DNA of 64,000 nucleotides from NCBI GenBank assembly GCA_963693055.1, contig OY843751.1, positions 2,976,001 through 3,040,000 on the forward strand, written 5' to 3'. The position numbers and the translations under genes are program-made. Under the pieces are notes generated by a model that saw nothing but the letters and a program-made list of their open reading frames with translations, did no database searches and was not told the DNA's origin. This document shows, piece by piece, positions 1-41,402 of this stretch. The number at the start of each line of letters is the position of its first letter. Within the stretch, counting starts at the first letter, position 1. The stretch comes from a bacterium. Lineage in GTDB: Bacteria > Zhuqueibacterota > Zhuqueibacteria > Residuimicrobiales > Krinioviventaceae.

Positions 1-21
1 TGGCTTTTAATTTTCATTCAT

Positions 22-507
22 CTACTTTCGTAACCGCGATCGCGTATATTCAATTAATCCTCCAGCATCCATCACCTTCTGACGTGTTCCGGACAATGGT
101 TGTATTGCATAAGATTTACCAGTGGTTTTGTTTACGACCTGGTCATTAGCTATCTCCAGCTCATGTCCGGTTTCAGCTTCAAAATCAGGAACTGTAAAAG
201 TTTGCAAGCCAAGGTTAACTGCATTTTGCAGAAAAATTCGGGCATAGCTTTTAGCAATAACAATCAAATCATGTCCCTTTAAACAGGAAGCAGCCTGTTC
301 CCGGGAAGAACCACAACCAAAATTTTCACCTCCCACAATTATGCTTTGTGCTGTCAGCTCTCCACTATTTAATTTTGCATTGAATTGTTTATCATCCGCA
401 AAGGCATATTCCGGGGTTTCTGAAGGTAATACAGTTGCCATAAATCGTCCGGGATATATAGTATCTGTTGATATATCATTGCCTAGTTTATAAACAACTT
501 TGGACAT
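22..507 (-). CDS. Homoaconitase/3-isopropylmalate dehydratase small subunit (HacB/LeuD family)
   Basis: Motifs DISTDTIYPG, GENFGCGSSREQA, AKSYARIFLQNAVNLG; 1 nt downstream of the large-subunit stop. Confidence 0.9.
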   Translation of the reverse strand: MSKVVYKLGNDISTDTIYPGRFMATVLPSETPEYAFADDKQFNAKLNSGELTAQSIIVGGENFGCGSSREQAASCLKGHDLIVIAKSYARIFLQNAVNLGLQTFTVPDFEAETGHELEIANDQVVNKTTGKSYAIQPLSGTRQKVMDAGGLIEYTRSRLRK

Positions 508-508
508 A

Positions 509-1801
509 TTAATTCCTTTCTTGACGTGGATCAGTTATTTTGCCGGTTATTGCTGAAGCAGCAGCAGTTGCAGGTGAACACAGGTATACCTCTGCATTGG
601 GATTCCCCATTCTGCCTTTAAAATTACGATTTGTTGTTGCTAAAGCAATTTCGCCATCAGCAAGTGCACCCTGGTGAACTCCCAGGCAGCAACCACATCC
701 GGGATTCATTATCACTGCACCACTTTGTGCAAGCGTTTCAAGATAACCTTCTTCCAACGCTTTACGATATATCTTGCCTGAAGCAGGAAAAACCAGCATT
801 CTAACATCATTGGCAACTTTTTTCCCCTTTAATATCTTTGCTGCTATTTCCAAATCTTCTAATCTGCCATTTGTACAAGAACCAATTACAATCTGGTCCA
901 GTTTCACATCATTAACATTGCTGATGGGTTCAACATTATCAACTGTATGGGGACAGGCAATCTGCGGCTCAAGATTAGAGACATCTATATCCACAATCTG
1001 CTCATAAGCAGCATCTTGATCTGGTGCAACAAAATCCAATTTATCCTCTACCCCGGCTTCCTCTCGCAAATACCGTTCTGTTTCCTGATCGGCAGGTACA
1101 ATTCCAGCACTGGCGCCGGCTTCTACAGACATGTTTGAGATAGTTAATCTACCGGACACATTCATTGCCGAAATGACATTGCCATGATATTCTAAGACTT
1201 TAAATGTAGCGCCTTTGGCAGAAATTTTGCCTATAAGATATAATATAATATCTTTAGCGGCTAAAGTTTCAGGCATAATTCCATTAATATTGACTTTAAT
1301 AGTGCCCGGAACTTCCAGGTTTAATAAAGTGCCCAGGCACCATACACTTGCCATTTCTGTAGCACCTATCCCCATTGAAAAAGCACCCAATGCACCATGG
1401 CTGGTAGTATGAGAATCCGTGCCTAAAACAACATAACCAGGGCGAACATAGCCATATTCAGGTAAAATCTGATGACATATGCCCCCCACATCACCACGGA
1501 TCTCGTGAAATTTTTCAACTCCTTGCTCTTTGAGAAAATTTCTAATTTTCTTTTGATTGTTTGCAGTTTTGGAGCTTTCCGCGGGCACACGATGGTCAAA
1601 TATGATTGCAATTTTATCAGGATCCCAAACCTTTGGAGATAAATCCGTTCCTTTATAAACTTCAAAGAATTGGTTTATAACCAAAGCAGCGTTTTCATGA
1701 GACATGGCAAGATCAACAGAAGGCTCAATGATATCACCGGGTTTTACGTTTGTAACATTTGCTGCTCTGGCAAGTATTTTTTCTGCAACAGTCATTGCCA
1801 T
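509..1801 (-). CDS. Homoaconitase/3-isopropylmalate dehydratase large subunit (HacA/LeuC family)
   Basis: FDHRVP, GICHQ, GTDSHT, IGSCTNGR, PGCGCCLG Fe-S ligands, TTNRNFKGRMG; RBS GGAG upstream. Confidence 0.92.
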   Translation of the reverse strand: MAMTVAEKILARAANVTNVKPGDIIEPSVDLAMSHENAALVINQFFEVYKGTDLSPKVWDPDKIAIIFDHRVPAESSKTANNQKKIRNFLKEQGVEKFHEIRGDVGGICHQILPEYGYVRPGYVVLGTDSHTTSHGALGAFSMGIGATEMASVWCLGTLLNLEVPGTIKVNINGIMPETLAAKDIILYLIGKISAKGATFKVLEYHGNVISAMNVSGRLTISNMSVEAGASAGIVPADQETERYLREEAGVEDKLDFVAPDQDAAYEQIVDIDVSNLEPQIACPHTVDNVEPISNVNDVKLDQIVIGSCTNGRLEDLEIAAKILKGKKVANDVRMLVFPASGKIYRKALEEGYLETLAQSGAVIMNPGCGCCLGVHQGALADGEIALATTNRNFKGRMGNPNAEVYLCSPATAAASAITGKITDPRQERN

Positions 1802-1814
1802 TGTTTTTCTCCAA

Positions 1815-3008
1815 TTAAATTATACCTTCTTTTTGGAAATTATTAATTTCCTCTTTTGTATACCCTACTTGACTGAGAAGTTCATGAGTATGTTGTGATA
1901 ATCTTGGGGGAGGATTGTCAATATTTGCCGGTGTTTTACTAAATTTTGCAGTCAGATTGAACAGCTTTAACTCACCCAACTCCTGATCTTGTACTGACGC
2001 CAATGTTTGCCGATGCTGAACTTGATCTGCAGACAATGCATCCTTTAAATCCAGAATATCTCCCGATGGTACTCCTTTAGCATTTAATAGTTCAACCCAT
2101 TCAACAGTATCTTTATCTATCAATTTAACTTCAAGCAATGGAGTAAGAATTCTTCTATTCTTTTTTCGTGTATCCCGCTCTTTAAATCTTGGATCCTCCT
2201 GTAATTCGGGAATTCCCAGCACCTCAGTTACACTGCACCATTGTTCCTGTTTATTTGCGGCAATGTTAATATATCCGTCTCTGGTTTTAAACGTACCGGA
2301 GGGTGCAGCTGTAAAATTATCATTACCTAACAAGGTAGGAGCCTGCCCTCCAATTAACAGATTTGCCGCAACCCATCCCATCAATGGCATTATAGAATCC
2401 AGCAAGGCAATGTCAATAAATTGTCCTTCGCCTGTTCTTTCCCTGTAATATAGGGCAGCCATAATAGCAAATGCCGCGTTTAAGCCTCCAACCGTATCAC
2501 ATACCGGGAAACCACACCGTAAAGGATTCAAAGTTTCATCACCATTTACAGACATCACACCACTTAGACCCTGAATGATTTGGTCATATGCGGGTTTTAA
2601 CGCATCTGGTCCGGTTTGCCCAAAACCCGAAATAGCGCAATACACAATTTTAGGATTAATGGATCGAAGTGTATCATAATCAAGCTCCAACCGTTTCATA
2701 ACACCGGGTCTGAAATTTTCAACAACAACATCTGCTGTTTTTACCAGTTTTTTGAATATCTGTTTGGCATTATCATCCTTTAAATTCAGCGTTAAAGATT
2801 TTTTATTGGCATTTTGAGCCAAAAAACTGGTACCCATTAGCTTTTGGTTCAATTCGGGCATACATCCCAATTTTCTAGCCAAATCGCCATCTTTAGGATT
2901 TTCAATCTTGATTACTTGTGCACCAAGCAATGCCAAATGTAATGTACTAAACGGACCAGATAACACATTTGTTAAATCCAGGACCCTTATACCATCCAGC
3001 AACCCCAT
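1815..3008 (-). CDS. Family III CoA-transferase (CaiB/BaiF)
   Basis: LDGIRVLDLT..LSGP, GAQVIKIE, NANKKSLTLNLK, ADVVVENFRPG, catalytic-Asp region AYDQIIQ. Confidence 0.93.
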   Translation of the reverse strand: MGLLDGIRVLDLTNVLSGPFSTLHLALLGAQVIKIENPKDGDLARKLGCMPELNQKLMGTSFLAQNANKKSLTLNLKDDNAKQIFKKLVKTADVVVENFRPGVMKRLELDYDTLRSINPKIVYCAISGFGQTGPDALKPAYDQIIQGLSGVMSVNGDETLNPLRCGFPVCDTVGGLNAAFAIMAALYYRERTGEGQFIDIALLDSIMPLMGWVAANLLIGGQAPTLLGNDNFTAAPSGTFKTRDGYINIAANKQEQWCSVTEVLGIPELQEDPRFKERDTRKKNRRILTPLLEVKLIDKDTVEWVELLNAKGVPSGDILDLKDALSADQVQHRQTLASVQDQELGELKLFNLTAKFSKTPANIDNPPPRLSQHTHELLSQVGYTKEEINNFQKEGII

Positions 3009-3928
3009 TAAAGCCCTCCTTTAAGCACTGTCGGTAAACCATTTTTATATAATCTACCAGACAACTCACGTTCAAGTATATCAGAAACATCTTTAACAAA
3101 TGCAACCAACTTTTCAAGATCGGGGAGATTGTTCATTCCCATTCTTTTGAACAGATACACCAAATCCTCGGTACACACATTTCCCGAGCTTGTCTTTGTA
3201 AAAGGACATCCACCAAGACCACCAAACGCAGTTTCAAAATGCCTGACACCTGTTTGAAAAGCAGCATAACAATTTGCTATACCAGCACCAAATGTATCAT
3301 GAAAATGACATGCACCTTTAATTTCAGAATCAAGCTCATAAATTGACGTAAAATAATCCTGTACCTGATCAGGATGAGCGTATCCGGCAGTATCAGCGAG
3401 GCTGATAAAACGAAAACCGGAATCAAGATATGATTTTACAATATTCATAACTGATTCTTTGGCAATTTCACCCTCAAAACCGCATCCAAAGGCTGATTGG
3501 ACTGAAAGTTGGACCTCTTTACCGTGATGTTTTGCCAGCTTTGCCATTAAAAGAATACGTTTTAAAGCCTCATCTGTATCCATTCCGGTATTTTTCTGAC
3601 TGTGTGTTTGACTCGCAGAAACACCCATGCAAAAGAGATCAACACCACAAGCCAAACCTCTGTCAAGACCCCGTTCATTCAAAACCAATCCACTGAAAAC
3701 AATATCCCCGGAATTGAACTCAGAATCGTGAATTAATTTAAACAATTCATCAGTATCAGCCATTTGCGGAACTTTGGCAGGATGCACAAATGAACCAAGC
3801 TGCAATGTTTTAATGCCGGCATCAATCAATTTTTCAACCCACATCATTTTTTTGTCAGTTGGTATTATTTGCTGTTCAATTTGGAGCCCGTCTCGAAGCC
3901 CAACTTCATGTATGATCACACTTTGCAT
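3008..3928 (-). CDS. HMG-CoA lyase-like DRE-TIM metallolyase (3-hydroxyacyl-CoA lyase)
   Basis: HEVGLRDGLQ, SFVHPAKVPQMAD, LADTAG, HFHDTFG metal site, GGLGGCPF, GNVCTEDL. Confidence 0.9.
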   Translation of the reverse strand: MQSVIIHEVGLRDGLQIEQQIIPTDKKMMWVEKLIDAGIKTLQLGSFVHPAKVPQMADTDELFKLIHDSEFNSGDIVFSGLVLNERGLDRGLACGVDLFCMGVSASQTHSQKNTGMDTDEALKRILLMAKLAKHHGKEVQLSVQSAFGCGFEGEIAKESVMNIVKSYLDSGFRFISLADTAGYAHPDQVQDYFTSIYELDSEIKGACHFHDTFGAGIANCYAAFQTGVRHFETAFGGLGGCPFTKTSSGNVCTEDLVYLFKRMGMNNLPDLEKLVAFVKDVSDILERELSGRLYKNGLPTVLKGGL

Positions 3929-5034
3929 GCAATTGCCTCTGCCATTTCAGATGTAGAACTATTCCCCCCCATATCATATGTTCTCACTTTGCCTTCACGA
4001 ATAACGTCTGCAACTGCTTTTTCAAGTTTATTTGCCTTATCAGTTTCACCAAGATAATCCAACATCAATTTGGCCGCTAACAGCATTGCGATTGGGTTTA
4101 CCTTGTCCATTCCTGCATATTTAGGGGCGCTTCCATGAGTAGGTTCAAAAACAGCATAATTGTCACCAATATTACCACTGGAAGCAAAACCCAAGCCACC
4201 TACAAGTTGTGCCGCAAGATCAGAAATGATATCTCCAAACATATTTTCAGCAACCAGAACACCGTAATTGTCGGGATTTTTCACAAGCCACATACACATA
4301 GCATCAATATTGGTTTCCCACAATTCAATATCCGGATATTTTTTAGCAACATCACGTGCACAACGAGTCATCAAACCACCGGTTTCGCGTAATACATTGG
4401 GTTTCTCTACCAATGTAACTGTTTTATAACCAAATTTTTGGGCATATTTAAATGCCTCATTCACAATATTGGTACATCCTGCTTTGGTTACAATGCGTGT
4501 TGATACGGCAATCTCATCTGGTGGTACATTTTCAAACTTTTTCATTTTGGGATGATTTTCCAAAAGCGCTTTAAAAACAGGATCAGGTAGCGGATGAAAT
4601 TCAACTCCGGCATAGAGACCCTGTGTGTTTTCACGGAAAACAACCAGGTCAATGCCTTCTTTATGGTTCAAAGGATTCCCAATATATGCTTTACATGGGC
4701 GTAAATTAGCTCTCAGATTAAATATTTGACGTAATTTTACTATGGGCGAAAAATATTCCAGGCCTTTACCTTGTAAATGGGGTGCCAGTTCTTTTGCAGC
4801 TTCATCTTTGGGTTTTGATGTAATAGCTCCGAAAAGAGCAGCATCTGTTTGATTTAACAAGTCTATAGTACGATCAGGCAATGGGTTTCCTTCAGTTTTC
4901 CAAAATTCCCAACCGATATCACCATAGATGTATTCTGCATCAAGTTCCAGCTTGTTCAGGACAAGTTTGGCCGCATTCATCACATCAATACCAACTCCAT
5001 CTCCTGGCAGCCATGCAATTTTATATTTAGCCAT
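3916..5034 (-). CDS. Beta-decarboxylating dehydrogenase (isocitrate/isopropylmalate family), homoisocitrate dehydrogenase-like
   Basis: LPGDGVG, FGAITS...SPIVKLRQ..LRANLRP, RENTQGLY, NMFGDIISD, FEPTHGSAP. Confidence 0.88.
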   Translation of the reverse strand: MAKYKIAWLPGDGVGIDVMNAAKLVLNKLELDAEYIYGDIGWEFWKTEGNPLPDRTIDLLNQTDAALFGAITSKPKDEAAKELAPHLQGKGLEYFSPIVKLRQIFNLRANLRPCKAYIGNPLNHKEGIDLVVFRENTQGLYAGVEFHPLPDPVFKALLENHPKMKKFENVPPDEIAVSTRIVTKAGCTNIVNEAFKYAQKFGYKTVTLVEKPNVLRETGGLMTRCARDVAKKYPDIELWETNIDAMCMWLVKNPDNYGVLVAENMFGDIISDLAAQLVGGLGFASSGNIGDNYAVFEPTHGSAPKYAGMDKVNPIAMLLAAKLMLDYLGETDKANKLEKAVADVIREGKVRTYDMGGNSSTSEMAEAIACKV

Positions 5035-5054
5035 GATTAATTCCTTAAATTCAA

Positions 5055-6380
5055 TTACATGTCATCAAAAACCTGTTTTAAAATATCCAAACAACAGTCA
5101 ATATGCTCTTTTTCTACAACCAACGCAGGTGCAAAACGTATAGAATTGGGTCCGCAGCCTAAAATGATTAGCCCCTTATAAAAGGCTTTGTCAAGAATTT
5201 CATTACGTTTCTGGGCATCAGGATCCAATGATTCATCATCCTTGATGATTTCAATGCCAACCATCAATCCTTTTCCTCTTACATCGCCAATAAATGGATA
5301 CTCGGCGGCCATTTCTTCGAGTCGTCCTATAAGATATTCACCCATCGTGGCTGCATTTTCAATTAATTCAGCTTCAAGTAATTCTATGGTTTTTAAAGCA
5401 GCAGCACAGGATACAGGATTACCGCCAAAAGTAGAAGCATGCGAGCCATATGGCCAATTCATAACATCACTTTTAGCAATAATAGCTCCAAGCGGCATTC
5501 CGGATGCAATACCTTTTGCGACACAGATAATATCAGGTTCTAAACCATAGTGTTCGCTGGCAAAAAACTTGCCTGTACGTCCCATACCTGCCTGAATTTC
5601 ATCGGCAACAATGAGAAAACCATGTTTTTCAGATAGTTTTTTCAAGCTATCAACATATTCTTTAGGTGGGACAATGTATCCACCTTCACCCTGAATAGGT
5701 TCAAAAAACACAGCGGCAACTTCTTCCGGAGGGACCGTTTTTTCAAAGATCGTATTTTCCAGATATTTTACACATTCGAAATTACAGGAGCCGTATTTTT
5801 GACCAAAAATGCATCGATAACAATATGGATAAGGAATATGGGTCACATCCGGCAGCAAGGGAGAAAATCCTGCTTTTTGCACAACTTTACTTCCTGTTAG
5901 TGACAATGCACCGTAGGTACGACCATGAAAAGCGCCAGTATAGGCCAATAAACGTGTACGCTTGGTATTATAACGGGCAAGTTTAATAGCCGCTTCAACC
6001 GCTTCCGCACCGGAATTTGTAAAAAACACGCGTTTTCCTGAATTTCCGGGAGCATTTTCAACCAGTTTTTTAGCTAATTCAGATTGTACCGTATAATAAA
6101 AATCAGTTCCTGACATATGTAACAGGTTGTCAGCCTGATCTTTAATAGCTTGAACGACTTGAGGATGACAATGTCCTGTTGAACAAACAGCAATACCACT
6201 ACAAAAGTCGAGAAACTCGTTACCATCAATGTCCTCTAAAATCACACCTCTTCCCTTTTCCGCGACACACGGAAAATCACGGGTATATGATGGAGAAACG
6301 TACTGATTGTCGGTTTCAATAACTTTTTGAGCTTTTGGGCCCGGTAAATTTGTCTTGATATTTGGATATGGATATGTCAT
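5055..6380 (-). CDS. Class III PLP aminotransferase (ornithine/lysine omega-aminotransferase-like)
   Basis: LPGPKA, LDFCSGIAV, NSGAEAVEAA, FHGRT, EPIQGEGG, DEIQAGMGRTG, AKGIASG; start moved to ATG 6380 (GAAAGG RBS; avoids overlap with the ALDH gene). Confidence 0.88.
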   Translation of the reverse strand: MTYPYPNIKTNLPGPKAQKVIETDNQYVSPSYTRDFPCVAEKGRGVILEDIDGNEFLDFCSGIAVCSTGHCHPQVVQAIKDQADNLLHMSGTDFYYTVQSELAKKLVENAPGNSGKRVFFTNSGAEAVEAAIKLARYNTKRTRLLAYTGAFHGRTYGALSLTGSKVVQKAGFSPLLPDVTHIPYPYCYRCIFGQKYGSCNFECVKYLENTIFEKTVPPEEVAAVFFEPIQGEGGYIVPPKEYVDSLKKLSEKHGFLIVADEIQAGMGRTGKFFASEHYGLEPDIICVAKGIASGMPLGAIIAKSDVMNWPYGSHASTFGGNPVSCAAALKTIELLEAELIENAATMGEYLIGRLEEMAAEYPFIGDVRGKGLMVGIEIIKDDESLDPDAQKRNEILDKAFYKGLIILGCGPNSIRFAPALVVEKEHIDCCLDILKQVFDDM

Positions 6381-6393
6381 AGCAAAGCCTTTC

Positions 6394-7938
6394 TCAATCA
6401 AATTGAATACCTTGCGCAAGAACCGTCTCTTGGCTCCAGTTAATTGTGTTTGTTTGTCTTCGCATATAGCCTTTCCAGGCATCTGATCCGCTTTCACGAC
6501 CTCCACCGGTCTCTTTTTCACCTCCAAAAGCGAGACCAATTTCGGCACCACTTGTTCCCAGGTTCACATTGGCAATACCACAATCGGAACCGGCATAACT
6601 GAGAAATGTTTCTGACTCTACCAGATCGTTCGTAAATATTGATGAACTGAGCCCCTGTGGTACATCATTTTGAATTGATATTGCATGTTCGATTGTACCA
6701 TCATATTTTAACAGATATAAAATTGGTGCAAATGTTTCTTCCTGAACAATATCCATTGAATTTTCAACCTCAGCAATTGCAGGTTTTACATAACATCCAC
6801 CCGGATATTCATTCTCATCCAAGGGCTCACCACCATATATCAGAGTACCGCCTTGTTCACGAATCTGTTGAATTGCTTTTTGCATCGTTTCAACGGCTAC
6901 TGTATCGACCAAAGGCCCCATTAGAATATTTTCATCCATAGGATTTCCTATAGTAATACGATTATAATAATCCAACAATTGTGTTTTAAATCTATCATAT
7001 ATTGATTCGGCAATAATTACCCTTCTGGTTGAAGTGCATCTTTGACCTGCTGTTCCAACTGCACCAAACAATACATTTTTTGCCGCAAGTTCTAAATCTG
7101 CCTTGGGAGTTACTATTATTGCGTTATTTCCACCCAATTCAAGTATCGTTTTACCCAGTCGTTCTCCAACTGTTTTAGATATATGTTTACCCAGGCGTGT
7201 TGAACCGGTATAACTGACAAGATTGATACGTTTATCATAATTTAATAGATCCCCAATTTCAGAACCTTTACCAGTTATCAGTGTCGCAATACCCTTAGGT
7301 GCATCGTTAGCTTCAAGTACTGCTTCAAGTATTTTTTGACATGCTATGGCAGTCAATGGAACAGGAGATGCTGGTTTCCATACACAAACATCACCACAAA
7401 CAAGTGCTATACTAAGGTTCCAACTCCAAACAGCAACCGGGAAATTAAATGCAGAAATGATCCCTACAACACCAAGTGGATGCCATTGTTCATACATACG
7501 ATGTTTAGGGCGTTCACTATGAGTCTGTACACCATATAACATTCGGGATTGACCACATGCATAATCACAAATGTCAATCATTTCCTGGACTTCTCCCCAA
7601 CCCTCTTGAATAGATTTACCCATCTCCAGAGTAACCAATTTACCAAGGGCGTCTTTTTTCTCGCGAAGCGCAACCCCCAATTGCCTTACAATTTCCCCTC
7701 TTTTAGGAGCTGGTACTTGTTTCCATTGTAAAAATGCATGCTGAGCAGATTTGATAACCATATCATAATCTTCTTTACTTGCCTGTTTTACCTGAGCAAT
7801 ACGTTCACCAGTTATTGGTGATAAAACATCCATAACAGTTCCATTTCCAAACCATTTTTCTCCATCAAAAACACCGTCATTAACATCTTTTAAATCCAGA
7901 GCTTTTAATACTGCGGTTATTTCATCCCGGATTTTCAT
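6394..7938 (-). CDS. ALDH7/antiquitin-type aldehyde dehydrogenase (2-aminoadipate semialdehyde / piperideine-6-carboxylate dehydrogenase-like)
   Basis: ISAFNFPVAVW, LELGGNNA, GTAGQRCT, and the family-typical tail GAEIG.AFGGEKETGGGRESGSDAWK.YMRRQT. Confidence 0.9.
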   Translation of the reverse strand: MKIRDEITAVLKALDLKDVNDGVFDGEKWFGNGTVMDVLSPITGERIAQVKQASKEDYDMVIKSAQHAFLQWKQVPAPKRGEIVRQLGVALREKKDALGKLVTLEMGKSIQEGWGEVQEMIDICDYACGQSRMLYGVQTHSERPKHRMYEQWHPLGVVGIISAFNFPVAVWSWNLSIALVCGDVCVWKPASPVPLTAIACQKILEAVLEANDAPKGIATLITGKGSEIGDLLNYDKRINLVSYTGSTRLGKHISKTVGERLGKTILELGGNNAIIVTPKADLELAAKNVLFGAVGTAGQRCTSTRRVIIAESIYDRFKTQLLDYYNRITIGNPMDENILMGPLVDTVAVETMQKAIQQIREQGGTLIYGGEPLDENEYPGGCYVKPAIAEVENSMDIVQEETFAPILYLLKYDGTIEHAISIQNDVPQGLSSSIFTNDLVESETFLSYAGSDCGIANVNLGTSGAEIGLAFGGEKETGGGRESGSDAWKGYMRRQTNTINWSQETVLAQGIQFD

Positions 7939-7948
7939 ACCAACTCCT

Positions 7949-8737
7949 TTATTTTTGATAAATATTTCTCAAAATATGGAAATCATTGCCAAAAATTGAT
8001 TTTGCCTGTTCTTCCAATCGATTTATTAATTTCCAGCTATAAATATCATGTTTTATAAAATCTTTTGCTACCCCTACCAGACTTTCATTTGCGGTCAATA
8101 CACCAATATTACTTTTTTGATCAGAAATAATACCTTGTAACAAATAAGAATTATCTACAACCAAAGTAAATTCTCGTCCACCCTTTTCTTTTATTTTCTC
8201 TTCTTCCAAAAGATGATGATAAACCGTTCCAAAATCCAATTCAAGGTGACCATATTGTACAATTGCTATATTTTTATTTTGCTTTTCTCGCAGCTTTTCC
8301 TGTAAAAGCAATAATTCTTCTTCCCAACAGAACAAGAGAATCTCAGTTTGGCAATTGAGAATTAATTCATTGGCTTTATTAATCAAATCTTCACGGGAGT
8401 TGATATCCCAAATATAATGAGATGATACTCCTTTGGCCTCCGGAAGATGCTTTTTTAAAAGATTGATTGATGCAGTTGTATCATCCTGGAAGCGTTTTAA
8501 CAATATTTCAATATCAATTGGAATATATTTAACAGGATCGGTTTGAATGGGAGAAATAACAGATTTCTCTAACAGCTTGTTGATAACTTCATAAACTTTT
8601 GATGGGGGAATCCCTGAACGTTTAGCTAATTCATAACCTGTAATTGGATTTTTTTTAACAAGTGCAACATAAGCTTTTGATTCATATTGAGAAAACCCAA
8701 ATCTAGCAAGATTTTCCATAATAATTGATATTGGCAA
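7949..8737 (-). CDS. TrmB-family transcriptional regulator
   Basis: N-terminal wHTH FGFSQYESKAYVAL...GYELAKRSGIPPSKVYEV plus C-terminal effector domain; TTG start with AAGGAG RBS 6 nt upstream. Confidence 0.88.
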   Translation of the reverse strand: MPISIIMENLARFGFSQYESKAYVALVKKNPITGYELAKRSGIPPSKVYEVINKLLEKSVISPIQTDPVKYIPIDIEILLKRFQDDTTASINLLKKHLPEAKGVSSHYIWDINSREDLINKANELILNCQTEILLFCWEEELLLLQEKLREKQNKNIAIVQYGHLELDFGTVYHHLLEEEKIKEKGGREFTLVVDNSYLLQGIISDQKSNIGVLTANESLVGVAKDFIKHDIYSWKLINRLEEQAKSIFGNDFHILRNIYQK

Positions 8738-8751
8738 AACGAACTCCTTAT

Positions 8752-8797
8752 TAACTACCCTTGTAGTTATTATATAAAAAGTTCATAGAATTGTCAA
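8752..8797 (-). promoter_or_regulatory. Consensus sigma70 promoter with overlapping palindromic operator
   Basis: Minus strand TTGACA (8792-8797), 17 nt, TATAAT (8769-8774); perfect inverted repeat TAACTAC-cctt-GTAGTTA at 8752-8769 spanning the predicted +1. Confidence 0.8.
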
Positions 8798-10457: not shown

Positions 10458-12251
10458 TTGTACAACAAAGACAATATTGATCGTTTACTATCCATAAATC
10501 CCACTATTCACAGTCTCCTCAAAGATGCCCAAAATCCCAGAATGGCAAGAAATTTTACCCGAATATATTTAGATGAAATGATCAGTATGCTTGACAGAAA
10601 TACACAAAAAATTCAACCCCTTGAATGGACTGTTCAAATGTCTTGTTTACAAACTTTTAAAAAAATCATCTCAGTTAGAAGTGAAAGGCTTGCAAAATTC
10701 AGTATCATTCAAGTACTTTTTTATATAGCAAAAGGGAAAATAGATAAACTTCCTGCTGATCTAAATGACGGCTTTTTTGAAGAAATGATCCACTTGTTTC
10801 AAGGTATGCTGGGCAAAAGTGGTATATATACTCAAGAAACAGTCCCTGAATTTACAAATTTGAGCGGACGAGATGCTGCCATTTCCCGATCTAATAAATT
10901 AGATAAAATGGCAAATGAAAGTAACAAATTTATAAAAAAATATCCATCAGGCCTTGATGAAATAGTAAAACAAAAACGTAAATCAAATAAGAAACGTATA
11001 TTGGATTATTTTAATGCTACAGAAGAAGATTGGAACAATCATCTCTGGCAAATGAAACATGTAATTCGAAACGTTGAACAACTTGAAGCATTAATTGATC
11101 TTTCGGAAGAAGAAATCCGTGCAGTCAATATGGCCAAAGGCGGTAATTTGCCCTTTGGAATAACCCCCTATTATGTGTCATTAATGGATAAAGAACCTGA
11201 TCGTAACCTTGATCACGCGATAAGAGCTCAGGTTATACCTCCCCTCAACTATGTAGAAAATATGCTAAAAAATCGTGATGATCGTTCCAATTGCTTTGAT
11301 TTTATGATGGAATCTGACACATCCCCTATTGAACTTATCACAAGAAGATATCCCATGATCTGCATTCTCAAGCCCTACAATACTTGTAGCCAAATTTGTG
11401 TGTATTGCCAACGAAACTGGGAAATTGATGATGTATTAGCTTCTGATGCTTTGGCAAGCAAAGAAAATATAACCAAAGCTGTTCAATGGATCAAAGAACA
11501 TCCCGCAATCAATGAAGTACTTGTTACCGGTGGCGATCCTCTGGTAATGAATAATAATAGGCTGGATTGGGTCTTAACTCAACTTGCAGAAATAGATCAT
11601 GTGGAAAGAATTCGTATAGGATCGCGTACACCTGTTGTATTGCCACAACGAATCACTAATGACCTTTTGCAAACGATCGAAAAATATCATGTCCCCGGAG
11701 TACGTGAAGTCGTTCTTGTTACACATTTCGAACATCCCTATGAAATTACTCCTGAATCCTTACAAGCTGTACAGAAATTCAAAAAGGCAGGAATTTCTGT
11801 TTACAACCAGGCTGTTTATACTCTTGAAAACAGTCGAAGATTTGAATTAGTAGCCTTGCGTAGATTACTAAGATTAATTGGAGTGGATCCATACTATACT
11901 TTTAATACAAAAGGTAAAGAAGAAACAAAGAGCTATCGTGTACCCATGGCCAGGCTTCAGCAAGAAATTAAAGAAGAAGCGAGATTGATCCCGGGTACAG
12001 TAAGAACGGATGAGCCAGTTTACAATGTACCTAAATTAGGCAAGAATTATATAAGAGCTCAACAGCATCACAGTGTATTAACTATTTTACCAAATGGTTC
12101 CCGGGTTTATGAATTTCATCCTTGGGAAAAAAATCTGGCATTAGCTGAAACATATATTGATACTGATGTTTCAATATATGATTATTTAAATATACTTGAA
12201 AAACGTGGTGAAAATATTGATGATTATAAATCTATCTGGTATTACTTTTAA
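10458..12251 (+). CDS. Long-form KamA-family radical SAM 2,3-aminomutase (glutamate-aminomutase-type residues)
   Basis: CSQICVYC radical SAM motif, RYP, TGGDPL, RIGSRTPVVLPQRIT, PYY, PKLGK putative PLP lysine; about 180-aa N-terminal extension; AGGAG RBS before TTG. Confidence 0.85.
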   Translation: MYNKDNIDRLLSINPTIHSLLKDAQNPRMARNFTRIYLDEMISMLDRNTQKIQPLEWTVQMSCLQTFKKIISVRSERLAKFSIIQVLFYIAKGKIDKLPADLNDGFFEEMIHLFQGMLGKSGIYTQETVPEFTNLSGRDAAISRSNKLDKMANESNKFIKKYPSGLDEIVKQKRKSNKKRILDYFNATEEDWNNHLWQMKHVIRNVEQLEALIDLSEEEIRAVNMAKGGNLPFGITPYYVSLMDKEPDRNLDHAIRAQVIPPLNYVENMLKNRDDRSNCFDFMMESDTSPIELITRRYPMICILKPYNTCSQICVYCQRNWEIDDVLASDALASKENITKAVQWIKEHPAINEVLVTGGDPLVMNNNRLDWVLTQLAEIDHVERIRIGSRTPVVLPQRITNDLLQTIEKYHVPGVREVVLVTHFEHPYEITPESLQAVQKFKKAGISVYNQAVYTLENSRRFELVALRRLLRLIGVDPYYTFNTKGKEETKSYRVPMARLQQEIKEEARLIPGTVRTDEPVYNVPKLGKNYIRAQQHHSVLTILPNGSRVYEFHPWEKNLALAETYIDTDVSIYDYLNILEKRGENIDDYKSIWYYF

Positions 12252-28838: not shown

Positions 28839-30269
28839 CAGGACACCCCCGAAAAATCACAAATCATATTACTGTAAGTAATAAAAAATAATGGAGATAG
28901 AAGCAAAAAAAGCTTGTAAAAATAAAAAAAGGTTGCCTCATTATAGTTGACAGACCATAATATAGGAGGCAACCCATGGACATCACAAAACGAGTCCAAG
29001 TAAAACTTAATCAAGTGACAGCGAAATATCAAGCAGAATTCAACCGACCGGACTATAAATTTATCAGAGACATGCATTATGGGATACTTTGCTCCGGGCA
29101 TGTACATTTAAATAAAATCGCATCAACCCTAAAGGAAGAGACGAGCCTAAAAAAGACAACAGAACGAATGTCAAACCATCTGGGCCGACCAGGATTTGAC
29201 AGAGAATTAACCATTAGTCATCTGAAAATAAACAAAAGAAGGTTTTCGGATTCGAAATACTTGATAGCAGATATGAGTGATATAATCAAGCCTTATGCGG
29301 AAAAGATGGAAGGGCTTGATCGTGTTTATGATGGTAGTACCAAAGAACTAGGGAATGGATACTGGCAACTGAATATCATTGGAGTTGATAAAACCGGTAC
29401 ATCCATCATGCCGCTGGTGAGTACGCTTTGGGCGACGGATCAGGAAGAAGGCAAAGGTATTTCAGAGAACAAGAAAATCCTCGAATCCGTGGACACGATT
29501 CGAGAACATATTCATGGAGAACAGATAGTTGTTTATGATCGCGGAGGTGATCGTAGCAAACTGATGAACAAATGGATTAAGCAAAAACAACACTTTATAA
29601 TACGGCAAACCGGGTACCGGGATATATTTGTTCAAGGAGTAAAGAAGAATTTAAAGAAATATGCCGAAAAAATCCGTCCCAGTACTGAAATTACCGTGCA
29701 GAAAAAACGCCGGAACAGGCTGATAAAGCGATGTTTTCAATGCGGTGCCCGTAAGGTATATCTGCCAAAGCAGTATGGGGATGGCCCAATGAACACCGGA
29801 TTATGGTTGATTTCAGTCACTGAACCCGGCAAAGGCAAAAGCTGGTTTTTAAGCTTTATACCGGCAGAGACTGAACGTGAGGCCATAGAGATTACGATGG
29901 AAGGCTATGGTTACCGGTGGAAAATTGAAGAGGTACATCGTCAAATAAAAAATGATTATCATCTTGAAGACATTTGCCTTAAAAGGTATGTTGCGCTAAA
30001 AAATTTTAATGCCCTGTTTTGGAATGTCATGAGTTTTATCTATTGTCATTTGGATAATATTTGTTTACATATTTTAGATCAATCTCAAGCTCCGTTGGTG
30101 TATAGAAGGAAATTAAACGAGTTTATTGGGTTTGTTTATTATAAACTGGCAAAGGCATTAAGGATCATTTTACCCAATATAAAGCTCAGAAAATTAAAGT
30201 GTAATAATCATGCCGGTGACAAAAATCAATTATTTTTGGCCCTCGAATAAAAAAATCGGGGGTACCCTG
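28839..30269 (+). mobile_element. IS4-family insertion sequence, 1431 bp
   Basis: Terminal IRs CAGGACACCCCCGA / CAGGGTACCCCCGA (12/14); perfect 10-bp target duplication TATAATTTAC at 28829-28838 and 30270-30279. Confidence 0.92.
28976..30250 (+). CDS. IS4-family DDE transposase
   Basis: ADMSD, VYDRGGD, YGYRWKIEEVHRQIK (YREK signature); GGAGG RBS. Confidence 0.92.
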   Translation: MDITKRVQVKLNQVTAKYQAEFNRPDYKFIRDMHYGILCSGHVHLNKIASTLKEETSLKKTTERMSNHLGRPGFDRELTISHLKINKRRFSDSKYLIADMSDIIKPYAEKMEGLDRVYDGSTKELGNGYWQLNIIGVDKTGTSIMPLVSTLWATDQEEGKGISENKKILESVDTIREHIHGEQIVVYDRGGDRSKLMNKWIKQKQHFIIRQTGYRDIFVQGVKKNLKKYAEKIRPSTEITVQKKRRNRLIKRCFQCGARKVYLPKQYGDGPMNTGLWLISVTEPGKGKSWFLSFIPAETEREAIEITMEGYGYRWKIEEVHRQIKNDYHLEDICLKRYVALKNFNALFWNVMSFIYCHLDNICLHILDQSQAPLVYRRKLNEFIGFVYYKLAKALRIILPNIKLRKLKCNNHAGDKNQLFLALE

Positions 30270-32773: not shown

Positions 32774-33700
32774 TTATCGTGTAAATAGAGGTCCTTCAGG
32801 TTTATCAGGCCAGGTAAGATTATTTTTATCAAGATAATTTTTCAGTTTAAAACCAAGCATTTTATAAATCAATTTTGCAACTGCAAAAACAGAATTTATA
32901 TCATCATTTTGGAGACTCAGTTCTACAATATCAAATCCTACAACTTTTTTATATTTGAAAATACTATACAAGATTTCCATGATTTCATGCCACAAGAAAC
33001 CACCAGGTTCAGGTGTTCCGGTACTGCGTATTACACTCCAGTCAAAAACATCAACATCTAGCGTAATAAAAACAGGATCAGGTAGTTCTGCCAATGCTTT
33101 TTCAAGGTCGAATCCCTCGTAACGGATTTTATGCATGCTTATACATTGAATGTTATTTTCTTTGACAATTTTAGCTTCAACGGCTTCCATGCTGCGAATA
33201 CCGAGTTGCAATGTATGAGGCGACATTTCTCGAATTCTTGACATAACAGAAGCATGGCTAAATTTACTACCCATATATTGATCGCGCAAATCTGAATGTG
33301 CGTCGAGTTGTATACAACTCATTTTTCCATAATGCTCAGACAGTGCTTTAAAATATCCCGAACTGATTGAATGATCACCACCAATAACGACTGTGAATTT
33401 ACCTTTTTCTATTAATGATTTGGTTTCATTGTAAAGCACATCAAGCATTGCTGAGGGGTCAGCAGGTATTACAGGAGTGTCAATAGTGGTAATACCCATA
33501 CGGTAAGGTTCAGCATCAATAACTTCATCGTATAATTCCAGTTGAGAAGATGCATCCAAAACGGCATCGGGAGCTTTTGCTGTTCCAATCCCATACGACA
33601 CACCTCCTTCGTATGGGAAAGGCAATAAAGCAACAGCAGAAGTTTCAAAATCAGTAAATTGAGAATCAATATCAAGGTATTGAATAGGGTTTAACTTCAT
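32774..33700 (-). CDS. speB: Agmatinase
   Basis: GGDHSIS, DAHSDLR, LDVDVFD, TGTPEPGG; last gene of the polyamine operon. Confidence 0.9.
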   Translation of the reverse strand: MKLNPIQYLDIDSQFTDFETSAVALLPFPYEGGVSYGIGTAKAPDAVLDASSQLELYDEVIDAEPYRMGITTIDTPVIPADPSAMLDVLYNETKSLIEKGKFTVVIGGDHSISSGYFKALSEHYGKMSCIQLDAHSDLRDQYMGSKFSHASVMSRIREMSPHTLQLGIRSMEAVEAKIVKENNIQCISMHKIRYEGFDLEKALAELPDPVFITLDVDVFDWSVIRSTGTPEPGGFLWHEIMEILYSIFKYKKVVGFDIVELSLQNDDINSVFAVAKLIYKMLGFKLKNYLDKNNLTWPDKPEGPLFTR

Positions 33701-34767
33701 CGTGAGGTATCCAGCGTTTCTATAAATTGGGGTAATTGTTTAATAATATTTTTAGGCTCTTTTTTATCACACAAATCATAAACATAAAAAGCCAATAATG
33801 GGAAAATGATACTGTAATCCCCCCAAATCTGTACAAGCTTATCCTGATTAGCAGAATGATATTTACCCCACGTTACAGCTTCACCAAAAGTACAACCAGA
33901 AAGACTGCCTTCTCTTTCCAGTGCTGTACCAATCTGTAATCCTCTATCAGCACCTTCAAAATCAATAGAAAGAATCTGACTAATGGTTGGACCGGTTTGC
34001 TGTATAAAATTTTTAGGTCCTCCACCTCCCAATTCTACAAAACCAGTAGCAGGAGATGAATAAGCAATTGCAGCAGAATCAAAAACATCTTTTTGCCCGG
34101 ACAAACGGACAGGGTAACCTTCTCGATCTGTTCTGGCAAGGTTCATTGCTATAGAATGATTTGATAAAGAATCCCAAAATATCGGGACTCCTAAACGTGC
34201 CGAAGTGGCAGTAAAACTCAACTCGGGATGCGGGGCATTTTCAAGAACCCACATACCTAAATGATAATTAAACTCCCAGCTTGACATTGCTTTGTCTTTA
34301 AGCTCATTGTGCTTTTCTATAATAAATTTTCTTATAATTTCATCCTGAGCTTCAAGTGTTTCTTTTTCACGGATACCAATATCGTAAATACGGGTATCTC
34401 CATATTGACGTAGTATATCATCGTCCCAATCCGGATTAATGGATTTAACAGGTAAACTGAATGCAAAATGCAGATCATGGTAAACCTGTGCTCCGGTTGA
34501 ACAAATAACATCTATATATCCGGATTCGAGCAAAGATATGACCATTCCCCCCATACCGCCGGCAATTCCTGCTCCAGCGATACCAAGCCAAATCACATCA
34601 TTATCATTGATCATCCGTTTATAAAGGTCTGCACCTCGATATACATTGCGAGCTTCAAAACTGGTTTCCCCCATAAATTTGACCAATTGTGGTATACTGG
34701 ATTTTTGTTTAATTTTATTTGGAACAAGATTCGGGAAATCGTGAAACATGGATTTATAATGAGTCAT
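33697..34767 (-). CDS. Deoxyhypusine synthase-like protein (probable homospermidine synthase)
   Basis: STGAQVYHDLH, GGGGPKNF, GSLSGCT..EAVTWGK with catalytic Lys; lies between arginine decarboxylase and agmatinase. Confidence 0.85.
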   Translation of the reverse strand: MTHYKSMFHDFPNLVPNKIKQKSSIPQLVKFMGETSFEARNVYRGADLYKRMINDNDVIWLGIAGAGIAGGMGGMVISLLESGYIDVICSTGAQVYHDLHFAFSLPVKSINPDWDDDILRQYGDTRIYDIGIREKETLEAQDEIIRKFIIEKHNELKDKAMSSWEFNYHLGMWVLENAPHPELSFTATSARLGVPIFWDSLSNHSIAMNLARTDREGYPVRLSGQKDVFDSAAIAYSSPATGFVELGGGGPKNFIQQTGPTISQILSIDFEGADRGLQIGTALEREGSLSGCTFGEAVTWGKYHSANQDKLVQIWGDYSIIFPLLAFYVYDLCDKKEPKNIIKQLPQFIETLDTSR

Positions 34768-40113: not shown

Positions 40114-40155
40114 AATTTTAAATATAACAATCCCATAACTGTAATGGAGAGTCCC

Positions 40156-41397
40156 ATGAAGACACTTTTAGTTATATGGGTAGTTTTTATCTATTCGTAT
40201 GCATACGCGGAAACAAATACATTACAACAGTGGATTCAAACTGCTCTTGAAAACAATAGAGATGTATCAGTACAAAAGTTAAAAGAACAAATGTCTGAAT
40301 TTGATGCTGATATAACCAGCGCACTTCCGGATCCTGTCTTTATGACAGAATTCAGAGGTATGCCTATAGATCCTATTGATCTCGGACAAACCAGTGAATG
40401 GATGTTTATGTTGCAGCAAACGTTTCCATTTCCCGGAAAACTGGGTAAAAACAAAGAAATTGCAAATATAAACTTAAAAATACAAAATCAGCAATATTTA
40501 GCAACAGAGAACCGGGTTGTTGCCATAGTAAAATCACTTTACTATCAAAAATTGTATTTGAAACAAAATATCAACACCTATAATGAAATAGATGAAATAT
40601 TAACCTCACTATTGCAAGTGGCTGATATTAAATACAAGAGTGGTATGATATCTCTTGTGGATATTAATAGATTCTACATTCAACAGGAAAAAAATCGCAA
40701 TAAAATAGTAGCATTTGAACAATTAAATCGCTCATTGGATTTAAAAATCAACAACGTTTTGGGTAATCCTTTAAACACACAATTACCCCCTTTAGATGAG
40801 CCAATAGATTTGATGCATCCCCTTCCATCAAACACACAAATAGACTCGCTCTTGAAAAGTAATAATCCTGATCTTGAATCTACCGTTTTAAAAGTTCAAA
40901 CGGCTGAATTGGATTACAAATTATCAAAACTTGATAATTACCCGGATATTACAATCATGGGTGGGTATATGGCAATGTACAATATGCCGGACAGGCTCAT
41001 GGGAAGAATATCCATATCACTCCCCTTCATGCCGTGGTCATCAAAAAACACCAAAGCAAGAACACAAAAAACAAAATTATTGATTGATCACAACATTACT
41101 CAAAAAACAGATTTACTGGAAAAGTTGAAAAATGAATCTGGTGACATTTTATTAAATTTAAAATCTATTAAAAGTCAATACACAACATTTATTGACAAAA
41201 TATTGCCGACAAGTAAACAAAATATCGATTTGTTGATTACAGCGTTCCAAACCAGTTCTGTTGATTATGCAGATTTACTAAAAAGCATCAATGACTATTT
41301 ATCACTAAAAGTTGAAAAAGAAAAACTTTTATTTGATTACAGAGTAAAGTTGGCAGAACTTGAAGTTATTACAAGTTCTCAAATAATAGAAAGGTAA
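40156..41397 (+). CDS. TolC-family outer-membrane efflux protein
   Basis: ALENN, LPDP, QTFPFPGKL, NNPDL, YPDIT; first gene of a tripartite RND unit; ATG 40156 with GGAG RBS. Confidence 0.85.
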   Translation: MKTLLVIWVVFIYSYAYAETNTLQQWIQTALENNRDVSVQKLKEQMSEFDADITSALPDPVFMTEFRGMPIDPIDLGQTSEWMFMLQQTFPFPGKLGKNKEIANINLKIQNQQYLATENRVVAIVKSLYYQKLYLKQNINTYNEIDEILTSLLQVADIKYKSGMISLVDINRFYIQQEKNRNKIVAFEQLNRSLDLKINNVLGNPLNTQLPPLDEPIDLMHPLPSNTQIDSLLKSNNPDLESTVLKVQTAELDYKLSKLDNYPDITIMGGYMAMYNMPDRLMGRISISLPFMPWSSKNTKARTQKTKLLIDHNITQKTDLLEKLKNESGDILLNLKSIKSQYTTFIDKILPTSKQNIDLLITAFQTSSVDYADLLKSINDYLSLKVEKEKLLFDYRVKLAELEVITSSQIIER

Positions 41398-41402
41398 TAA
41401 TC

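Follow-up and report, generated by a model that had tools for sequence, protein, structure and literature searches.

Introduction

The upper alpha-aminoadipate pathway of fungi, Thermus and methanogens comprises homocitrate synthase, the hydro-lyase HacAB or Lys4, and homoisocitrate dehydrogenase (HICDH; Lys12 or AksF). Lysine catabolism through Lat and Pcd (AmaB) leads to 2-aminoadipate and from there into glutaryl-CoA or HglS routes. Chloroflexus cleaves citramalate with succinyl-CoA:(R)-citramalate CoA-transferase and (R)-citramalyl-CoA lyase, a family III transferase paired with an enzyme of the HMG-CoA (3-hydroxy-3-methylglutaryl-CoA) lyase type (HMGL); isocitrate lyase (ICL)-family enzymes cleave 2-alkylmalates. 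The citrate-cleaving arm of the reverse tricarboxylic acid (TCA) cycle combines isocitrate dehydrogenase (IDH) and aconitase with ATP citrate lyase (ACL) or with citryl-CoA synthetase and citryl-CoA lyase (CCS/CCL). Here we analyse an eight-gene operon in a 64,000-nucleotide stretch of a bacterial genome, referred to as the window (assembly GCA_963693055.1, contig OY843751.1, positions 2,976,001 to 3,040,000), which unites a regulator, a candidate operator, lysine-entry enzymes, a CoA-dependent lyase and a terminator in one transcription unit. In the literature we searched, coverage of which is incomplete, we found no publication on homocitrate cleavage or on a reverse-homocitrate route for lysine.

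Results

We propose, at a probability of about 0.68, that the operon degrades lysine through 2-aminoadipate to 2-oxoadipate, which with CO2 would yield (R)-homocitrate and finally acetyl-CoA and 2-oxoglutarate; both the substrate and the direction are inferred from sequence. A reversed alpha-aminoadipate route had been suggested by the first-pass annotation, and it gains support from interchangeable lyases, hydratases linked to lyase type, Lys4-type homoaconitases, several kinds of lysine-entry enzyme and an NADP-type coenzyme motif. In the first step, judging from its family, the omega-aminotransferase would take the epsilon-amino group off lysine to give aminoadipate semialdehyde, which the ALDH7 enzyme, above its equivalog cut-off, would oxidise to 2-aminoadipate with formation of NAD(P)H, an effectively irreversible reaction. 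A second transamination, possibly by the same aminotransferase, would produce 2-oxoadipate. In the fourth step the NADP-type dehydrogenase would reductively carboxylate 2-oxoadipate to homoisocitrate, and HacAB, by analogy with its Methanocaldococcus jannaschii counterpart, would then convert this via cis-homoaconitate to (R)-homocitrate. The CoA-transferase would finally activate the acetyl arm of (R)-homocitrate for cleavage by the lyase. Overall, lysine and CO2 would yield one C2 unit and one C5 unit; redox would be balanced between steps two and four, and neither glutaryl-CoA dehydrogenase nor oxygen would be required. Thermodynamic feasibility is argued from the likeness to the reverse-TCA segment.

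The gene set is not private to this genome. All seven enzymes stand in the same order in G001, G005, G014 and G017, three of which also begin with TrmB (the contig of G005 stops within the ALDH gene); this answers the earlier question of whether the neighbourhood is conserved. The five-gene core is present in G047, G142, G143 and many metagenome contigs, and a lyase or transferase occurs in 38 of 198 loci (two duplicates removed). The dehydrogenase belongs to a clade found in 55 of 61 related genomes (54 at 55% identity or more, plus a contig-end fragment in G011; G052, at 42%, was left out) and in 80 named records of many phyla, archaea included, with labels such as Zixibacteria, Krumholzibacteria, Ignavibacteria, Planctomycetota, Atribacterota, Thermoplasmatales and Heimdallarchaeota.

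What accompanies this clade varies in one slot. Exactly one cleavage module was counted in 53 of the 55 clade genomes (CitF 42, CCL 4, HMGL 7), from hand-entered lists in which the HMGL call of G031 is a contig-edge fragment and the ICL type is covered at locus level; five of the six non-clade genomes have no module, and G052 has CitF. In a second set of 44 further clade genomes, picked from the 80 records to span phyla, 39 have CitF (25) or CCL (21), both being present in seven and neither in five. The replacement is most direct in G003 and G010, where TrmB, ALDH7, aminotransferase and dehydrogenase are followed by an HD protein, two HacA paralogues, HacB, a CitD-CitE fusion and CitF, so that CitD/E and CitF occupy the place of lyase and transferase. 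SucC/SucD-like CCS subunits are found in other loci, together with a citryl-CoA lyase above its cut-off, HD, HacA and PrpD. The CitE and CitF proteins tested score below the cut-offs for true citrate lyase (256/443 and 486/501; scores are given throughout as score/cut-off). The window's own HacA clade has one of two partners, lyase and transferase or an ICL/PrpB-family lyase, and sequences from both settings are intermingled on the HacA FastTree. Queried by BLAST with LeuA and the CimA-like and Re-citrate-synthase-like proteins of the genome, the related loci yielded no synthase-like DRE-TIM gene. All occupants of the slot come from families whose known reaction is cleavage, so the direction is probably catabolic.

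Two further combinations were seen. The ICL/PrpB-family lyase (L212:1159-2091 and homologues) has a KRCGH loop, falls below the prpB cut-off and occurs with the window's HacA clade in 29 loci; it is a candidate CoA-independent (R)-homocitrate lyase. Some of its loci contain gltS and an aldehyde:ferredoxin oxidoreductase and have no dehydrogenase. In two Thermoplasmatales-labelled genomes (G187:C3:37130-40543 and G189:C25:3312-6683), genes for CitF, a citryl-CoA-lyase-like protein and an ARD-type HacA sit side by side; this looks like a fifth module combination, in which CitF may be the CoA-transferase for CCL.

The type of lyase is linked to an additional hydratase. PMC3556520 describes anti addition and removal of water by aconitase-family enzymes and syn action of PrpD on (2S,3S)-methylcitrate, and reports that M. 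jannaschii HacAB catalyses both homocitrate half-reactions. CitE-fold lyases act on (3S)-citryl-, (S)-citramalyl- and (R)-HMG-CoA, and the Pseudomonas aeruginosa HMG-CoA lyase PA2011 acts on (S)-HMG-CoA, according to PMC6689899. These opposite stereopreferences, taken with DRE-TIM stereochemistry, imply that an HMGL-type lyase should need one hydratase and a lyase of the CitE or citrate-synthase fold an extra one. We recorded this expectation, with HacAB giving (R)-homocitrate and (S)-type lyases depending on an adaptor hydratase, before counting. PrpD or a second, "ARD"-type HacA was present in 20/20 CitDEF/CCL loci as against 0/67 HMGL/ICL loci. At genome level, 42 of the 46 clade genomes with CitF or CCL in the first set have an adaptor and none of the seven HMGL genomes does; PrpD and ARD-type HacA never occur together among the 61 genomes. 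The second set gave an adaptor in 34 of 39 genomes with CitF or CCL, including three with both types, and neither in five. Since prochiral citrate would need no adaptor, the pattern argues for a chiral substrate such as homocitrate.

The divergent HacA clade that takes PrpD's place is marked by an ARD[FY]xG motif (L058:6798-8615, L126:4917-6155 and homologues), and is an aconitase-family candidate for an (S)-homocitrate dehydratase. A small HD-domain protein (L058:8612-9157 and homologues) occurs in 18/20 loci with (S)-type lyases and in 0/67 HMGL/ICL loci.

Lysine-entry genes of four kinds lie in 14 of the 198 loci: ALDH7 with aminotransferase (8), a lysine-ketoglutarate reductase (LKR)-like protein with saccharopine dehydrogenase (3), a saccharopine-dehydrogenase-like protein (2), and Lat with a lysine dehydrogenase (LysDH)-like protein (1; L098, Lat above its cut-off). 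In L197 and L206 the LKR-like and saccharopine dehydrogenase genes stand directly upstream of dehydrogenase-ICL-hacA-hacB, and in L126, L109 and L127 the entry genes are on the opposite strand. Fused hydratases adjoining the clade dehydrogenase exceeded the cut-off of the fungal homoaconitase model TIGR00139 in all three cases tested (L102, L130 and L138).

The dehydrogenase itself falls under every equivalog cut-off, including AksF2 (341/540), further homoisocitrate dehydrogenase models (AksF and iso_homocit_dh; 281/500 and 191/680) and LeuB (TIGR00169; 211/353). No general HICDH model is among its family matches listed, and the protein represents a separate clade. Within 150 clade sequences T72-S73, S96-P97-I98-V99 and K305-Y306 are conserved. 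Of the Ser113/Asn115 pair of IDHs, to which PMC3521221 assigns roles in isocitrate binding, Ser is retained and Asn is replaced by Ile in 148/150. The same source names Lys and Tyr in the coenzyme-discriminating loop as a determinant of NADP specificity; the clade has K305 in 147/150 and Y306 in 145/150, aligned with 2iv0 and 2d1c, where the Thermus thermophilus HICDH carries Asp-Ile. In the substrate loop the clade's Thr-Ser and Ile match that HICDH, Val stands at the position of its Arg, and the genome's own LeuB has Gly-Ala at the Thr-Ser position. In the PDB comparison the Schizosaccharomyces pombe entry 3ty3, relevant to the suggested resemblance to fungal Lys12, ranked beyond the alignments listed. 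Substrate and coenzyme motifs are identical across all cleavage-module types, and an NADP-type site suits the reductive direction.

The lyase is above the HMG-CoA lyase cut-off of PRK05692 (263/246) and fails homocitrate synthase models (TIGR02146 77/414, nifV 59/463). Its structural model (pLDDT 91.9) aligns with HMG-CoA lyases at TM 0.87-0.90 and with homocitrate synthases at 0.70-0.78. R12 and D13 of the Arg-Asp motif, the histidines H208 and H210, and C241, the GGCP cysteine, are invariant in 45 sequences, so that in the model and the alignment the protein has the fold and catalytic residues of the HMG-CoA lyase type. Gly102, Gln140, Ser142 and Gln144 are likewise invariant; Gly102 and Ser142 replace two aromatic residues of human HMG-CoA lyase, which may make the pocket wider and polar, so that a larger polar arm could fit. 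Among the best 120 homologues HMG-CoA lyase is the only name given, the others being unnamed; a homologue at 66% identity has the source label KSB1. The CoA-transferase is the sole family III member found in the genome, and its best PDB match is human succinate-hydroxymethylglutarate CoA-transferase (9br7).

HacA belongs to a single "SHEN" clade (FastTree, 116 sequences, midpoint-rooted); it falls within the hacA_fam subfamily and below the cut-offs of substrate-specific models (HacA_Meth 505/550; LeuC TIGR00170 259/560). The small subunit is below HacB models at about 102-110/230.

At the entry to the pathway, the ALDH exceeds the cut-off of the L-piperideine-6-carboxylate dehydrogenase equivalog NF050084 (782 vs 730 bits), which places it in the Pcd/AmaB group. 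The best family of the aminotransferase is PRK05769 (646/552), and the Lat equivalog (L-lysine 6-transaminase, TIGR03251) is absent from its best 25 families listed. A PDB search gave 7vno, which we take to be PH1423, as the closest solved structure (435 bits). A table in PMC9986279 includes L-Orn and L-Lys among the donors of PH1423 and of the archaeal relative TK2101, and 2-oxoglutarate and 2-oxoadipate among the acceptors of TK2101. By analogy with this use of 2-oxoadipate, one aminotransferase might process aminoadipate too.

The genome is a single 6.5-Mb contig, 100% complete, and it provides separately for the biosynthetic tasks that the operon's families usually serve. LeuA, LeuB, LeuC and AcnA are encoded elsewhere, each above its cut-off, with leuD adjoining leuC, so the operon does not hold the only leu genes. 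A complete diaminopimelate (DAP) cluster, lysA-dapL-dapF-dapA-dapB-lysC-like, lies at C1:3402180-3408712 (names other than dapF and lysA are from translations). LysW, which the first-pass annotation had also failed to see, was not found in the genome: PF21344 gave 0 matches, and its control matched 5/14. Near acnA are an IDH-like gene, best matching NADP-IDH below cut-off, and a Re-citrate-synthase-like DRE-TIM protein. Because separate leuABCD, AcnA/IDH-like and DAP genes exist and LysW was not found, the operon is not one for leucine, glutamate or lysine biosynthesis. DRE-TIM matches elsewhere in the genome are LeuA and the CimA-like and Re-citrate-synthase-like proteins. A separate RocD-like ornithine aminotransferase is named from its translation. 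The single acyl-CoA dehydrogenase scores 329/470, below the glutaryl-CoA dehydrogenase cut-off; an HglS search found nothing, and queries for PrpD, CitF, CitE and citryl-CoA lyase had no matches in the genome. No other known exit from 2-oxoadipate or from lysine was found there. Four 2-oxoacid:ferredoxin oxidoreductases and a SucCD-like pair are encoded and could consume the 2-oxoglutarate produced.

The acnA region (G000:C1:1770104-1780988, L222) holds, besides acnA and the IDH-like and Re-citrate-synthase-like genes, a gene for a 630-aa GGACT-domain protein; at its coenzyme site the IDH-like protein carries Arg-Met.

The tightly packed minus-strand operon of eight open reading frames that had been described was recovered over the same span, and the motifs SPIVKLR, IYPG, SSREQA and EVGLRDGLQ are all in the translations as quoted. 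Intergenic gaps from TrmB to hacB are 10, 13, 20, -13, -1, 13 and 1 nt, taking the aminotransferase to start at the ATG at 6380 (441 aa) and not at the overlapping GTG at 6551. The operon is confirmed to be bounded at both ends by its own promoter, candidate operator and terminator (Table 1); the terminator of the preceding gene sits upstream of the promoter. The palindrome pattern is a 16-mer whose sole site in the 6.5-Mb genome is the one listed, and it is equally placed in L022, L023 and L025, with conserved arms and a variable spacer. It is a candidate binding site for TrmB, which would repress the operon from there. The terminator after hacB has a 14-pair stem and a T-run (L001 16008-15977) and begins at window base 8.

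Table 1. Position in the window of the operon, its genes and its flanking signals
Feature	Position	Strand	Length	Models and remarks
Eight-gene operon	22..8737	minus		order TrmB, ALDH7/Pcd, class III aminotransferase, beta-decarboxylating dehydrogenase, lyase, CoA-transferase, HacA, HacB
Sigma-70-type promoter	8769..8797	minus		12/12 consensus, 17-nt spacer; same layout upstream of TrmB in L022, L023, L025
Palindrome, candidate TrmB operator	8753..8768			6-bp arms, 4-bp spacer; between -10 box and ribosome-binding site
TrmB-family regulator	7949..8737	minus	262 aa	PF01978; first gene also in L022, L023, L025, L058, L059
ALDH7/Pcd/AmaB, piperideine-6-carboxylate (aminoadipate semialdehyde) dehydrogenase	6394..7938	minus	514 aa	NF050084
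Class III omega-aminotransferase, Orn/Lys type	5055..6380	minus	441 aa	PRK05769; PDB 7vno
Beta-decarboxylating dehydrogenase, predicted NADP(H)-type homoisocitrate dehydrogenase	3916..5034	minus	372 aa	PF00180 (Iso_dh)
HMG-CoA-lyase-type DRE-TIM lyase, predicted (R)-homocitryl-CoA lyase	3008..3928	minus	306 aa	PRK05692
Family III CoA-transferase, predicted acyl-CoA:(R)-homocitrate CoA-transferase	1815..3008	minus	397 aa	PF02515 (CoA_transf_3)
HacA-family hydro-lyase large subunit ("SHEN" clade)	509..1801	minus	430 aa	TIGR01343, TIGR02086 above cut-off
HacB/LeuD-family small subunit	22..507	minus	161 aa	TIGR02087 (LEUD_arch); PDB 3vba, 2pkp
Intrinsic terminator hairpin, start	1..8	minus		directly after hacB; extends ~23 nt past the window's left end

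A KamA-like gene at window 10458-12251 (+) was rejected as part of the operon, as it adjoins the operon in just 1 of 120 loci (L022, same genus). It encodes a long, 597-aa radical SAM protein of the KamA family that does not reach the cut-offs for lysine, glutamate or arginine aminomutase, and a second KamA homologue lies at C1:3894730. Elsewhere in the window are a DDE transposase (28976-30250, +), a deoxyhypusine-synthase-family gene adjoining an arginase/agmatinase-family gene (32774-34767, -), a CusCBA-like heavy-metal efflux set (40144-47437, +) and an ordinary bacterial alpha-2-macroglobulin with a PBP1C-type gene (51036-58856, -). Just beyond the window's left end, translations indicate clustered genes for PP2C-type phosphatase, anti-sigma and anti-anti-sigma-like proteins (L001:167-8558).

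Discussion

We propose that the operon is most likely a module for 2-oxoacid elongation that operates catabolically to shorten the chain, with lysine as the source of the 2-oxoacid. Several observations weigh against this reading. The operon lacks a dedicated 2-aminoadipate transaminase (NF049976 302/650), and its aminotransferase family, in the table of PMC9986279, accepts ornithine besides lysine. Lysine-entry genes are near just 4 of the 38 HMGL-type loci, many of them on short contigs, and the distribution of ALDH7 (58% identity or more), in 41/55 clade and 4/6 non-clade genomes, does not follow that of the module. Whole-sequence scores place the dehydrogenase as near to NAD-IDHs (6ltf, 6lky) as to HICDH, its NADP specificity would fit an IDH too, and G046 and G056 have no Iso_dh-family gene other than the clade dehydrogenase. 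For the lyase, the structure with the closest fold, 6nds, contains 3-methylmalate. The HacB loop differs from those of both solved M. jannaschii small subunits (2pkp and 3vba) and lacks the Arg found in the homoaconitase 2pkp. The one-module rule is broken by G013 and G016, where the clade is present and no module was found, and by the seven second-set genomes with both CitF and CCL. The adaptor rule is broken by four CitF clade genomes of the first set and five of 39 in the second, among them G172, a chromosome record, which have neither hydratase, and by the three with both; its logic would fit any chiral 2-substituted malate and does not choose homocitrate over citramalate. Sampling also counts here, as HacA of the window itself served to pick the metagenome loci, many contigs are short, and related genomes are not independent in the co-occurrence counts.

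Several of these points feed an alternative that we consider unlikely, a citramalate or 2-alkylmalate pathway working in reverse. A short 2-oxoacid such as 2-oxobutyrate would be carboxylated to 3-methylmalate and isomerised to (R)-citramalate, whose CoA ester would be cleaved to pyruvate and acetyl-CoA, and the lysine genes would form a fellow catabolic unit under the shared regulator. Both cleavage systems have their precedents on this side, namely the (R)-citramalate pair and the 2-alkylmalate-cleaving ICL family; the R/S adaptor pattern fits equally well, 3-methylmalate is the ligand of 6nds, and the HacB loop is not of the homoaconitase type. The same dehydrogenase clade, however, stands beside Lys4-type homoaconitases and four kinds of lysine entry, with motifs that are constant over the modules, and its Thr-Ser is HICDH-like where the genome's LeuB has Gly-Ala. 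Gly102 and Ser142 of the lyase may leave space for a larger polar arm, and threonine- or methionine-degrading genes were not noticed among the recurrent neighbours.

The same enzymes could in principle run forward, an option that we regard as improbable. Lyase and transferase would then act as a split, thioester-saving homocitrate synthase, 2-oxoadipate would accept the amino group of lysine, and both arms would meet at 2-aminoadipate, destined for an osmolyte or a secondary metabolite. The central steps are all reversible, oxidative decarboxylation is the usual direction of the dehydrogenase family, and 2-oxoadipate serves TK2101 as an acceptor in the table cited above. Against this, the slot is also filled by CitDEF-like, CCS/CCL-like and ICL-family enzymes, which are known for cleavage; LysW was not found in the genome, no downstream user of aminoadipate was found in the operon or among the recurrent neighbours, and the NADP-type motif differs from that of the biosynthetic T. 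thermophilus HICDH.

A C5 analogue, in which ornithine or glutamate would pass through 2-oxoglutarate, isocitrate and citrate to acetyl-CoA and oxaloacetate as in a reverse-TCA segment, seems to us quite improbable. It would make direct use of the ornithine accepted by the aminotransferase family in the same table, of a dehydrogenase that scores equally against IDHs and is of NADP type, and of partner lyases annotated as citrate or citryl-CoA lyases, and it would account for G046 and G056, where the clade member is the sole Iso_dh gene. The Asn of IDHs is nevertheless replaced by Ile, AcnA, IDH-like and RocD-like genes are present separately, the ALDH is of the piperideine-6-carboxylate type and above its cut-off, the tested CitE and CitF score under the true citrate lyase cut-offs, and a prochiral citrate would leave the extra-hydratase rule unexplained. 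An ordinary leucine/HMG-CoA or lysine-biosynthesis cluster, as automatic labels (HMG-CoA lyase, LeuC/LeuD-like, isopropylmalate/homoisocitrate dehydrogenase) would have it, is contradicted by the separate leu and DAP genes, the failure to find LysW, the lack of a synthase in the operon and the single acyl-CoA dehydrogenase in the genome, and we give it almost no credence.

Beyond the operon, we consider it somewhat better than an even chance that lysine degradation through homocitrate is a widespread CO2-consuming pathway of sediment bacteria and archaea. An NADPH-type homoisocitrate dehydrogenase would be joined there by homocitrate lyases of at least four kinds, each recruited independently (HMGL with family III transferase, ICL-family, CitDEF-like and CCS/CCL-like), with PrpD or a second HacA as a stereochemical switch supplying the last two with (S)-homocitrate. 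If lysine is indeed degraded in this way, the route would be redox-balanced and oxygen-independent, would take up CO2 and would avoid glutaryl-CoA dehydrogenase. It would add homocitrate CoA-transferase, homocitryl-CoA lyase and a physiological 2-oxoadipate carboxylase to the known activities, and (S)-homocitrate dehydratases in relatives. Metabolic reconstructions of lineages that carry the clade would change, and many "citrate lyase" or "citryl-CoA lyase" calls used as reverse-TCA, carbon-fixation markers in such genomes would represent lysine catabolism. The operon described here is the simplest test object: its five central enzymes are soluble, it has just one hydratase, and its transcript also encodes the entry enzymes.

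Comparison with known systems

The upper alpha-aminoadipate pathway is the closest described system, sharing with the operon its hydro-lyase and dehydrogenase families and the same predicted intermediates. The operon differs in having a CoA-transferase and a lyase instead of homocitrate synthase, an NADP-type motif, co-transcribed lysine-degrading enzymes and a predicted reverse direction. With the Lat/Pcd routes it has in common the omega-aminotransferase and ALDH7 entry; in its genome, however, glutaryl-CoA dehydrogenase and HglS were not found, and 2-oxoadipate is predicted to be carboxylated, not decarboxylated.

At the cleavage step, the operon resembles the Chloroflexus citramalate pair and the combination of HMG-CoA lyase with succinate-HMG CoA-transferase (6nds, 2cw6, 9br7), in which a 3-hydroxy acid is activated by a family III transferase and then split by a DRE-TIM lyase in a retro-Claisen reaction. 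Unlike the solved HMG-CoA lyases, with which it has about 29-35% identity, the operon lyase has distinct invariant pocket residues and is coupled to HacAB and the dehydrogenase. The citrate-cleaving arm of the reverse TCA cycle and CitDEF likewise join reductive carboxylation, isomerisation and carbon-carbon cleavage, and the operon's relatives use CCS/CCL-like or CitDEF-like lyases. In contrast to that arm, the predicted substrate has one more carbon and is chiral, the (S)-type lyases are accompanied by PrpD or a second hydratase, and the process would be heterotrophic catabolism, not carbon fixation.

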